Assembly: GCF_002105155.1 (NCBI RefSeq)
Contig: NW_019029001.1
Location: forward strand, 124,001 to 188,000
Length of the DNA stretch: 64,000 nucleotides
Direction of reading: 5' to 3'
DNA from: Lobosporangium transversale
Taxonomy: Eukaryota
Part shown: positions 43,380 through 47,208 of the stretch, piece by piece
Layout of the letters: every line of letters begins with the position of its first letter
How positions within the stretch are numbered: position 1 is the stretch's first letter
Notes under the pieces: generated by a model
What the model was told of the DNA's origin: nothing
Database searches by the model: none
Seen by the model: the letters and a program-made list of their open reading frames with translations, nothing else
Position numbers and translations under genes: made by a program

Positions 43380-46300
43380 CTATGAACTTGTTGACTTGAA
43401 CTTGTTGGGCCTCGTTTGTGTAGTTATATGGGACAGGCACACACGCGCATTGTTCTCGGATCCGACCATGTCACGATCACAATATATCTGACAGCTTCGA
43501 CAATACTTGGACCTGTTGACATGAATTTCTAGGAATGCGTTGCGGTTGGGGCGGGGACATTTAGCACCAGTGTAATACTCATGAACGCCAACAACTTCGT
43601 ATCCAAGGGGCCTCGCCTGTTTGAGGAAAAAGTAAATAAATGAATATAAATAGGATAGAGAATAGAGTGACCAAAGTCTCTTTTTTTTTTCTGATACTTA
43701 CTCTCGTTATGAATCGCTTTTCGAACTCGGAACGCTTCGAGGATAATGCAGTTTGTGTGTTGAAAGAACCAAGATCGATTACGAAAACTGCAGGGTTGGA
43801 GGAATCCATCTTCCTCCCGTTGTTCCCTCCAGCAAGTTGAGGGATTGAATCAATCCCATAGTCGTATGCAGTTTTCTGAGCTTTTCTCAAGTCCCAAGTC
43901 TTTCGGAGATGCCACTAGCGGAGATAAAAAGATCGGAGTCTTTTCCCCTCTCCATCCCTGTACAGGTACTCCAAGTACGAATTGATCCCTGAAAGCGTCA
44001 TGGGCGGCAGCACTGACTCGATCAGATCGATACCGAATTGGGCCTTTCACTCTTCAAGCAAGTGACGGTACTTGATATAAGGCCCGTACAAGAACGATCG
44101 ACGGATGGTGGTGAAGCGAGGGACTTGGGGCTCCCCTGGACTCAGCGCTGCTGCAACCATTGTCTTTACCTCTCCAGGATCCATCCCAACGACAAGCGGT
44201 GTCGGACCGGAACTTGAGGAGACATTCTTCAGCATCTTGGAGCCTCGTTTCCAGTTGATGCTAGAGACACGCGCTCTTTCCGTATCCGAAGTGTCTGATC
44301 CATCGTCCGAAGAGAGGGTCCAGAGCCAGGAGCCCTTGGAAGCACGGGAGTACGTGGTGCTCCACCTCGCGCACGTTTCACAGTCGCAGGCGGGGCGGCG
44401 CTGAGCTTTCGCTTAGCACAAGTACGTAAGTGGGCCCTTGATGATGAGCTTTCAGCTTCCTGCTCCTCAAGTTGCAAAAGAGCGCTTTCCATGTCATCGT
44501 CATTTTCATCATCGGGGGGCCTGGATGAAGACGCTCGAGGCTTCGGGCGTTCCTTAGTGGTGTCATATGCTAACAGGTTGAGCACGAGTTCATTGGTGCA
44601 GATGGTCCCCTTCAACTTGAACCGATCCGATAATGTATCCATAGTCCCACCTTGCCATGATATCCGTTTATGCGCTGACGGGTTCGAACAGGGCAGAGCA
44701 AGCTACTGATCGACAATCCCTTACGCCTCAGAACCAGCTGGGCAGCCTCATCAATGCTCGCATCATTTGCGAATTCTAATGCGTGGGGGCCTTACGACGC
44801 GTGTCCTCGTGACCGTGGAAGATGTGGAACAAATCCTCCTCAGATAGATAGACGTATGTAGGCTTGTGTTTACTTTTTGGGAAGTCTGCAACATTCTGTT
44901 TGACTATTTTTCTCAAAGAATTAGCCAATCGGGTTTCTGTTTCCTGGCCGCTGCCCAGTCTCGGAGAACTGCTTGAGTTACATCCAAATGAAAAAAAAAA
45001 AAAAAAAAAAAAAACCTAATTGTTGTTTCGCGATGCAGGAGTGCCGCCTCATGTTTAGGCTTGGACATAAAAGTGCGACCCACCACTGATCCCATGAAAT
45101 GCACTCGCATAGCATGCTTAACGGAGATCATTGTCAATATCAGTACAGTAGTGCGGACATGAGCCGACGTATGCCCTGGCCGCTCGGCGAACCCGAGGAA
45201 ATTTGTTTTAGCCTTGTAATGTACGAAGGCTCGCAGGGTATGGGGCTTTTGAGGAGGCGGCCGATGACCAGGAACGGGATTTGAACGCGTTACTATGGTT
45301 GTCTGTGAAGCACGCAAAGCTCTTTCATATCCAGACATCCTCCCAAGTCGCCCTTTTTGGATTAGCGTACTCAATGAGAAGTAAAGTCCTCGCTCTCGAG
45401 GATGTCTTCAAGGTCCGTGATATCTTGCTGAGAGAGGATGTGTTGCACCTGAGCCGGCGACAGGGTATTGAGGAGGATTGTCGGTGAGCCGTACCCGTGG
45501 TTGGATTGCTGCTCGAGAGCCCTTGAGATATGGAAGATATCTTGCTGTGAGAGTCCTGGTTGCGTCCGAGCCACCAAAGGCGTATTGGAAGGGATCACCG
45601 GTGGAGTAAATGTGCAGCTGTATTTCCGCCCGAGGATCCTGGCGATATCGAGGGCAATAACCTCATAACTTATGATCCTTGCCGAATGAAGATAGAACAC
45701 ATGAGACTGCAGGGCATTAGACAGCTTCCTCGCTGCAGGGTTGGACATGTTTCTACACCGCAACGTGTTTGCCTTGATACTTCTTACAGCCAAGGCCTTG
45801 GTGAAGTATCTCTTACGCAAGCTATGGTCCCTTTTTGTGGTAGCAATAAGGCCTCTCCTCTCTTCTGGTTCTGATGTACTACTTCTCCTTGGTAGTATCT
45901 TCTTCTTGTAGAGCCGACGCTATGTAGCCTTCCTAGACGGATCTCGCGGTGACGCTGGACGAGAACTGTGTATGTCAGCATTCAGGGTCATTGTTTGGGG
46001 ATGCAGCTTTGCTTCTTTACTCTTGAAGTGTGGCCGGAACTGATTGGGGCTTGATCCTTCGCGGATATATGCTGTGAGCGGCCTATCAGTCATTCAACAT
46101 AAAATAAAAACAAGATAAATAATTAGTTGTTTGTCAGCTGCAAATTATGTCAACCACTGATTAGTTGTGTGCTAGTATTGATAGCAGCAGCAAGAAGGAG
46201 GTACGGTGAACCAACTTTTGAACTACAATCTCAGTGACATGAAGAGCTTTCAGTTGATTGAAAGTGGTGAGCCCGGACATGAACATCTGGTTGGTAGGGG

Positions 46301-47208
46301 ATGGGTCTTACATAGATGAGGTGTGATATCTAAAAAGACATTACCAGCTAGAGCAAAGTACTCAGAAGCGATAGCCGTGATTGGCCTTTGGTTCATCGTG
46401 GTGATATAGGAGGCTAGTAACGCACGAGCCGATTGAGCTTGAGGCAATTTTCGGATGATGTTTAGATTCCTCGATAGGCCATACTGTGGGATATTATTTG
46501 TATAGTCGTTTTTAGACACCACTCCAAAATCCTCAAGGTGATCAGGGGACGGTAGCCGAAGAGCTTGCATTACATCGATCTTCCTCAACAGAACAAACCC
46601 TTCTTGCCCTGTTAACCTCCTAACTACGTAGGAGATACTTGGATAGATTAGGAAATCACTATCTGACGACACAGCAAACCTTTCAAGCACATTCAAGCCT
46701 CTATTAACCCGGGATTGGCCACGACATAAAGCAGCAATGTATGCATCAGATTTTCCTTGACAGCATACAGTGAACATGGTCACGAGACCATCTGCCAATC
46801 TGTTTATTGTCTCAGTGGTGACGACGAAGGCTCCTCAGGCAAGTTTCAATTCGGTGGATAATAGGTTTGGAAGTCCATCTTCCCTGGGCTGACCGACCGC
46901 GCATCATAGCGAGGTTTTCCTGCAGCCTGTATTTGGCTATTTTGGCGCTCATTATATGCTTTTAGCTTTTCTTCCGTGCGCGCCCGTCGAGATGTAACGT
47001 AGAACAACGTGGGTCAAACGACGATGATATGATGTGCGCCAGCCTTATACCCGCTTGATATGGATTGAGGCTGGAGGTTGAGGCTAAGCTGGCCAAAATA
47101 AACTGGTAATAAGTGCCGAAGATATCGATGTCAAAATGCACATCAGATTGTGTTAAAGGCTTGAAGCCTGCGTTTCTTCAAATACTGGTAGAGGCCGTGC
47201 ACACCCAT
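43380..47208 (-). pseudogene. Decayed PIN (FEN1/XPG-like) nuclease-Fanzor (TnpB-like RuvC) fusion gene
   Basis: N-term MGVHGLYQYLKK, HFDIDIFGTYY, LHLDG..EK, GKSDAYIA, VSSDSDFL, GVVSKNDYTNNIPQYG; C-term LKGTICTN, VVGMDPGE (RuvC-I), ARPLGYEVVGVHEYYTGAKCP (RuvC-II), YCRSC..DRD..GSEN (Zn finger, RuvC-III); several stops and frameshifts; intron 43617-43701. Confidence 0.82.

Follow-up and report, generated by a model that had tools for sequence, protein, structure and literature searches.

A Fanzor1 gene with an EXO1/FEN1-type nuclease head in Lobosporangium transversale and its relatives

Most Fanzor1 (Fz1) proteins have a length of 600–700 amino acids (aa) (Xu 2024, PMC11423790). SpuFz1 leaves 5′ overhangs, and a cut-and-copy process has been proposed for Fanzors (Saito 2023, PMC10432273), which resembles the homing of TnpB in IS200/IS605, where cutting of the empty site and its restoration by homologous recombination have been proposed (PMC10432273; bioRxiv 10.1101/2023.11.20.567912). 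A 5′ exonuclease has been tethered to nucleases of the TnpB superfamily by engineering: fusion of T5 exonuclease helps Cas12f, trims the break ends, and leads to longer deletions (exoCasMINI, PMC12337685), and T5 exonuclease reduced the indel editing of engineered SpuFz1 whichever terminus it was attached to (T5E-SpuFz1, PMC13434818). In this study, we analyzed a 64,000-nucleotide (nt) stretch of Lobosporangium transversale DNA (contig NW_019029001.1, positions 124,001–188,000; hereafter the window, whose coordinates are used throughout). At 43380..47208 on its minus strand lies one spliced gene that joins a PIN nuclease of the EXO1/FEN1 (Rad2/XPG) type to a Fanzor1 body. Such a pairing of a 5′ nuclease with a TnpB-superfamily nuclease is natural and conserved in Mortierellaceae, unlike the man-made T5 exonuclease fusions.

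The fusion in the window and in intact relatives

Between 47177 and 43383, a profile of 19 relatives matched 13 minus-strand fragments in colinear order, far beyond chance (profile positions 25–1042 of 1056; E values 8e-4 to 2e-42), and the relatives P0158 and P0159 aligned in order along the entire gene from 47171 to 43389. In a frameshift-aware alignment with P0158, 400 of 1093 aligned residues were identical, with long skips at three intron positions. For the PIN part encoded by exon 1, the hhalign probability was 99.7, and exon 4 matched Pfam Cas12f1-like_TNB above the curated cut-off (E 1.5e-6), while the remaining nine fragments of the gene, including all N-terminal PIN ones, had no meaningful Pfam match. 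A database gene model was 98% identical to the RuvC query, and its exons were 96–100% identical to the window. A preliminary description of the window had read one colinear minus-strand gene with an N-terminal FEN1/XPG-type PIN part and the D-E-Zn finger-D architecture of Fanzor/TnpB, and this reading was borne out. Three-frame translation also located all of its motifs: the ATG at 47208, D at 47126, DG at 46988, SD at 46750–46745, DSD at 46663, and NDY at 46510 of the PIN part; the RuvC-I D at 44181, RuvC-II E at 43580, and RuvC-III D at 43472; and the terminal stop at 43382–43380. At the C-terminus, the D, the E, four Cys, and the RD are kept, with T-G in place of the T-S of the Fanzor1 motif.

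A HMMER search of 1.84 billion representative proteins with the RuvC-I segment gave 167 matches, 150 of which were listed. A word-based comparison of a PIN fragment of 194 aa with longer proteins gave no match among 1834 candidates. Among the 150 matches listed, 18 extend to the start of the WED domain, and a PIN head is present in all 12 of those with 150 aa or more ahead of the Fanzor body, as scored with a PIN sub-profile built from the same proteins. The upstream sequence of the other six is too short; one of these, P0140, shares a 90% cluster with the PIN-bearing P0168 (1500 aa). P0158 (1210 aa), P0159 (1260 aa), and P0128 (1131 aa) are complete and contain all PIN and RuvC catalytic motifs in a single chain, so that intact homologues carry the two nucleases as single proteins and not as the separate genes that would have spoken against the fusion. 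Among 30 representatives looked up, all named relatives belong to Mortierellaceae, and the remainder are metagenomic or unlabelled proteins. In a viral contig set, 20 pattern matches included no relative; in a Foldseek search of viral models, viral Fanzors and viral flap endonucleases were separate, and none of the 50 listed rows was long enough for both.

To compare folds, a profile of 16 sequences was used together with AlphaFold2 models built from 76-sequence alignments (mean predicted local distance difference test score 81.4 for P0005 and 77.5 for P0128). The N-terminus of the profile matched FEN1/EXO1/Rad2/XPG chains (E 9e-9 to 2e-4), and its C-terminus matched SpuFz1 (E 6e-4). A profile was needed for this, as phmmer with P0158 alone against the PDB reached E 0.14–0.27 at best. 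Pfam XPG_I_2 was above its cut-off in one of 26 relatives scanned, with weaker XPG matches in one more. Residues 1–296 of the P0128 model matched EXO1 with Z 21.5 (root-mean-square deviation [rmsd] 2.5, 264 residues aligned), tied with FEN1 (Z 21.4). Known Fanzor1 structures include SpuFz1 (PDB 8gkh and 9ceu–9cez), PpFz1 (9cf0–9cf1), and GtFz1 (9cer). Residues 438–1098 of the P0128 model matched SpuFz1 (Z 17.1, rmsd 3.6, 472 aligned), and residues 326–1051 of the P0005 model matched PpFz1 (Z 18.5, rmsd 3.9, 474 aligned) and SpuFz1 (Z 16.7), with Cas12j and Cas12f lower (Z ≤14). The best seven Foldseek matches of the P0005 model were all Fz1, and both models align to SpuFz1 residues 18–633 (Z 15–17). 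Judged by these models, the N-terminal part of the relatives is a PIN-like core with a helical arch and H3TH of the EXO1/FEN1 type, and the C-terminal part is the whole Fanzor1 WED-REC-RuvC-TNB fold (Z 14–18.5, ca. 470–480 residues aligned) rather than something unlike TnpB/Fanzor. The linker between the halves is basic and of low confidence in the predicted models.

In FEN1 and EXO1, Gly2, the Lys and Arg of the arch, and the carboxylate positions are catalytic. We scored the corresponding columns in 19 chosen PIN-bearing proteins with a mean identity of ca. 29–31%, counting identical over covered sequences. G2 (11/11), D34 (11/11), D80 (12/12), K87 (12/12), R94 (12/12), D195 (15/15), and D249 (18/18) were invariant; E165, D167, and D197 were each kept in 13/15, their departures being confined to P0094, P0162, P0163, and P0168. 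In RuvC, the three acidic positions gave D 17/18, E 8/10, and D 9/9. P0158, P0159, P0157, and P0128 have all seven carboxylates, Gly2, and the two basic arch residues, and the D-x(125–275)-[TS][TS]xx-C4 zinc finger-x-RD motif of Fanzor1 is present in P0158, P0159, P0128, and P0005. Thus, both active sites are conserved in the intact relatives.

The relatives share with Fanzor1 the D..E-Zn finger-D triad and the state of a multi-copy, intron-bearing fungal gene. They differ in an extra N-terminal nuclease of ca. 300–330 aa, the basic linker, and acidic inserts, which bring the total to 1100–1300 aa; at the window copy no inverted repeats were found. An omegaRNA and TAM-dependent cleavage are predicted features of the intact relatives. 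With EXO1/FEN1 they share the fold over the full catalytic core and, in the intact relatives, the carboxylates, Gly2, the basic arch residues, and H3TH. In contrast to these host repair enzymes, from which they are distant (16–21% identity only), they probably reside on a repeated element and are fused to an RNA-guided nuclease fold.

The gene family is multi-copy. Several diverged paralogues occur in the species of the window, and in Linnemannia gamsii six nearly identical proteins share a single 90% cluster but differ in longest-contig size (five values), which suggests recent copying. The identities of the PIN and RuvC parts covary across 105 pairs (Spearman 0.51; 1 of 5000 permutations), which fits an old fusion. 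In locus L003 (288–4244), identity to P0144 is 59% in the PIN exon, which has no match to P0158; in the Fanzor part, it is 23% to P0144 and 68% to P0158. The two parts can be spliced together in frame. L003 has arisen by a natural exchange at the intron between the halves or, alternatively, by an error of metagenome assembly. Two further observations concern relics of the family. Locus L005 has a PIN fragment at 3557–4337 and a RuvC fragment at 11150–11257, ca. 7 kb apart with unrelated open reading frames (ORFs) between them, and these are two separate relics and not one gene. In the window, the minus strand carries a second and much older PIN remnant of this family at 49480–50366, where two fragments match the profile (E 9e-6 and 2e-11); no Fanzor part was detected with it, and it has no real DNA similarity to the 43380..47208 copy.

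The fusion sequences are already catalogued. Supplementary Table 1 of Saito 2023 labels P0158, P0159, and P0019 as FZ1 (three of six search terms matched), and the placement of the homologues in the Fz1 clade follows these labels. On reading, at least 12 further Mortierellaceae FZ1 rows of that table start with the same PIN motifs; one of them bears the NCBI description "Rad2 nuclease", and Table S2 of Yoon 2023 also contains such a PIN-headed protein. "XPG" and "PIN" do not occur in the supplements of Saito 2023 and Yoon 2023. No PIN or nuclease head is described in the available text of Jiang 2023 (PMC10530073), Saito 2023 (PMC10432273), Yoon 2023 (PMC10711439), Xu 2024 (PMC11423790), or Bao and Jurka 2013 (PMC3627910), the protein supplement of which was motif-searched at first places only. 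The supplements of Jiang 2023 gave no match for the genus names. Likewise, no such fusion appears in the available parts of a PIN classification (PMC5499597), a 2026 OMEGA review (PMC13565253), PMC6338049, and an ESM preprint. No paper on the fusion was among the literature matches listed, bioRxiv supplements and subscription journals being outside this scope, so that a mention elsewhere is possible. Therefore, the expectation that the fusion had not been described holds for the nuclease head, which is unremarked in the literature searched, and fails for the sequences themselves; the novelty is that of a variant of Fanzor1, narrower than had been supposed.

Exons, decay, and transcription of the window copy

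Exon 1 (46200..47208, 3′ end approximate) encodes the EXO1/FEN1-type PIN part with its Met-Gly start, helical arch, and H3TH, and is frameshifted. Intron 1 as spliced in sequencing run X5 occupies 46083..46311 (229 nt, GTAAGA..AG) and is out of frame relative to the homologues, whose alignments place the ancestral donor near 46200 (intron of ca. 115 nt). Exon 2 (45087..46082), also frameshifted, encodes the basic flexible linker and, after it, the first part of the Fanzor1 WED/REC lobe. It is followed by a probable ancestral intron 2 at 44972..45086 (ca. 115 nt with an internal poly-T), where all three alignments have a long skip and loci L001 and L003 have introns at the matching place; no splicing of it was seen in run X5. 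Exon 3 (43702..44971) encodes the rest of REC/WED, an acidic low-complexity insert, RuvC-I, the bridge helix, and the lid region, and contains frameshifts and stops. Intron 3 (43617..43701; 85 nt, GTAAGT..CAG) is spliced in run X5, and exon 4 (43380..43616) encodes the RuvC-II E, the C4 zinc finger (TNB), the RuvC-III D, and the stop. The preliminary description had named frameshifts. These are indeed present, but the gene also has three introns (43701–43617, ca. 45086–44972, and one ending at 46083), and the FITR/ARPLG junction is a real GT..AG intron, spliced in run X5.

Eight frameshifts were located by the alignment with P0158, and one or two extra ones with other queries. In-frame stops are present in exon 3 at 44049–44047 and 43917–43915, as had been reported. 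All three RuvC acid codons are intact. In the PIN part, six of seven carboxylate codons are kept; at 46753, the E-x-D motif has a lysine codon where the glutamate should stand, and therefore the PIN half, too, has lost a catalytic residue. Judged by its codons, the window copy is dead for both predicted activities. Exact-match contigs of runs X1, X3, and X5 run through the stop at 43917 and through several of the frameshifts, and because of this the breaks look genuine and not like assembly errors. Run X1 may be the source sample and is thus not independent evidence; diverged paralogues in it carry other letters at the disrupted sites.

Run X5 is classed as RNA by the guess of the tool, which is backed by GT..AG joints and by zero cover at 43100–43391; it is one run, represented by contigs only, and no run recorded as RNA was among those listed with this sequence. 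Its exact-match contigs cover most of 47286–43393, and two minus-strand GT..AG joints occur at 43701–43617 and 46311–46083, the latter of which connects PIN-coding sequence to the next exon. These contigs and joints indicate that the pseudogene is still transcribed and, in this probable RNA run, probably still spliced at some level. A dipeptidyl-peptidase gene lies tail to tail with the Fanzor gene and ends near 42880, and the surrounding window DNA is intron-rich.

Candidate omegaRNA and element ends

Three Fz1 omegaRNAs of 75–150 nt have a conserved 7-bp first stem-loop (Xu 2024, PMC11423790). In the window, the minus-strand 3′ non-coding flank common to paralogues (43260..43392) is a candidate omegaRNA region with an unfixed boundary: paralogue cover is raised from ca. 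43246 upward, one loose end resembles 43263–43282, and the paralogues share this flank for roughly 70–120 nt. The lack of run X5 cover there is uninformative for or against an omegaRNA. A 6-bp hairpin on the stop codon (43365..43381, minus strand) is a weak candidate for the first stem-loop. It is present in three of four loci (the window, L001, and L003) and fits L002 poorly; across these four loci, 19 of the 24 cells are paired, as compared with 29–58% in slid controls, and two pairs are changed on both sides. The shuffle controls for this hairpin range from 18/500 to 433/500, and the z-scores for folding of the whole region are −1.6 to +0.5. The hairpin as an omegaRNA stem-loop is a plausible lead, no more.

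A search of the DNA around the window gene revealed neither terminal inverted repeats nor a target-site duplication, and the element itself contains no transposase. The best inverted matches between the flanks are A-rich and were equalled or beaten by 4–117 of 200 shuffles. We also sought an 8–10-bp exact duplication with complementary inner ends, as for the 9-bp duplication of the MuDR/Mutator type, and found none around the gene. A contig break at 43313 was considered as an element end and dropped, a paralogue loose end resembling sequence further out.

Several other features were noted in and near the flanks. Ca. 32 nt at 43283–43314, flanked by a short direct repeat, are apparently absent from one paralogue, as seen by eye at a contig loose end. 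Upstream of the gene, a 36-nt inverted pair (47407–47442 and 47825–47861; 31 identical columns, 0/200 shuffles) encloses ca. 450 nt, resembling a miniature inverted-repeat transposable element, and no target duplication was found for it; its terminal octamer recurs downstream of the Fanzor gene, at 43288–43295 in the shared 3′ flank. An uninterrupted 621-aa ORF on the plus strand (52090–53955) has weak matches to DDE_3 and helix-turn-helix domains (E 3e-4 to 1e-2) and is Tc1/mariner-like, with no link to the Fanzor gene shown. The repeat-rich part at 50350–51685 includes a 188-nt tandem duplication at 50810–51185 (91%); contig depth over it is extreme in run X5, which also has GT..AG joints on the plus strand there, and it is possibly a highly expressed repeat.

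Possible roles of the nuclease head

We think it somewhat probable that intact relatives would make an RNA-guided cut at an element-free site, followed by tethered 5′–3′ trimming that favours repair by copying. An omegaRNA from the 3′ end of the element would guide RuvC to such a site and leave a staggered break, by analogy with SpuFz1 and PpFz1. The tethered 5′ nuclease might then trim the 5′ overhang and resect 5′–3′ to give 3′ single-stranded tails, which would shift repair away from end joining and towards homologous recombination with an occupied sister or allele, that is, cut-and-copy. In favour of this reading are also the 5′ overhangs of SpuFz1 and the cut-and-copy proposal for Fanzors (PMC10432273), as well as the trimming of ends by T5 exonuclease on Cas12f (PMC12337685). 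Unlike the cut-and-copy of TnpB, which relies on host resection, a PIN-Fanzor would supply its own. The architecture, the conservation of both sites, the multi-copy state, and the splicing are observations; the guide, the target, the resection, and the homing are inferred. More tentatively, and with more doubt than confidence, Mortierellaceae may harbour a large clade of such two-nuclease RNA-guided enzymes, forming a self-resecting homing drive that is perhaps transposase-free and has exchangeable exonuclease heads.

Several results weigh against RNA-guided cutting followed by tethered trimming. The drop in indels with T5E-SpuFz1 indicates that an added exonuclease does not simply help Fanzor1, although that assay scored indels and not recombination. 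The halves of L003 come from mixed subfamilies, and therefore PIN and Fanzor need not be tightly co-adapted. The failure to find terminal repeats, a target-site duplication, or a transposase at the window gene, the wide range of the hairpin controls with the unremarkable folding scores, and the shared origin of the PIN sub-profile and the proteins counted with it also belong on this side.

Alternatively, the PIN part may act on RNA, either trimming the 5′ end of the omegaRNA from the mRNA or degrading the guide in the R-loop to release the enzyme. The candidate hairpin overlaps the stop codon, so that the guide would need to be freed from a longer transcript, and EXO1 and FEN1 have RNase H-like activity. 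Rad27/FEN1 cleaves the RNA of R-loops (PMC10201435). We consider an RNA substrate unlikely, since SpuFz1, GtFz1, and PpFz1 yield mature omegaRNAs in yeast without a PIN part (PMC10432273, PMC11423790) and the best structural matches of the head are DNA-bound EXO1/FEN1.

Ranking next, and unlikely in our view, is that the PIN part serves copying or insertion of the element, such as flap removal or gap tailoring, independently of the RuvC cut, the fusion being a means to co-express two cargo enzymes. The flexible, low-confidence linker, the conserved intron at the junction, the resemblance of L003 to a module swap there, and the PIN-only remnant at 49686–50366 are all in its favour. However, we saw no intact PIN gene of this family standing alone, the two halves covary among family members, and no transposase is linked inside the element.

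A destructive RNA-guided nuclease, which would cut and then processively degrade its target, acting on competing elements or invading DNA and not for copying of itself, appears quite improbable. An exonuclease fusion does yield longer deletions (PMC12337685), and many degenerate copies could supply varied guides, by analogy with ghost loci (PMC10432273). Against this, the decay and scattering of the copies recall selfish elements, nothing points to a fixed host locus, and no guide-target pair was identified. Lastly, gene prediction could have wrongly joined two neighbouring genes, as the mostly partial database models and the presence of introns might suggest. This is hardly credible, because the halves are colinear in many species at ca. 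30% identity, contigs of run X5 pass from PIN-coding sequence over a GT..AG intron into the next exon, and splicing of L003 can link its PIN to its Fanzor part without loss of frame.

The host role of Fanzors is still open, and the available text of Saito 2023 (PMC10432273) only proposes cut-and-copy. That an EXO1/FEN1-type head has been retained over deep divergence suggests that break processing belongs to the job of Fanzors. The PIN-Fanzor is a natural counterpart of the engineered exonuclease fusions, among which that with SpuFz1 failed. The copy in the window is only a fossil; it is intact relatives, for example KAF9949975.1 and KAF9383209.1, that are of value. If a self-resecting clade does exist, it would offer a ready-made scaffold for biasing editing to homology-directed repair or long deletions.

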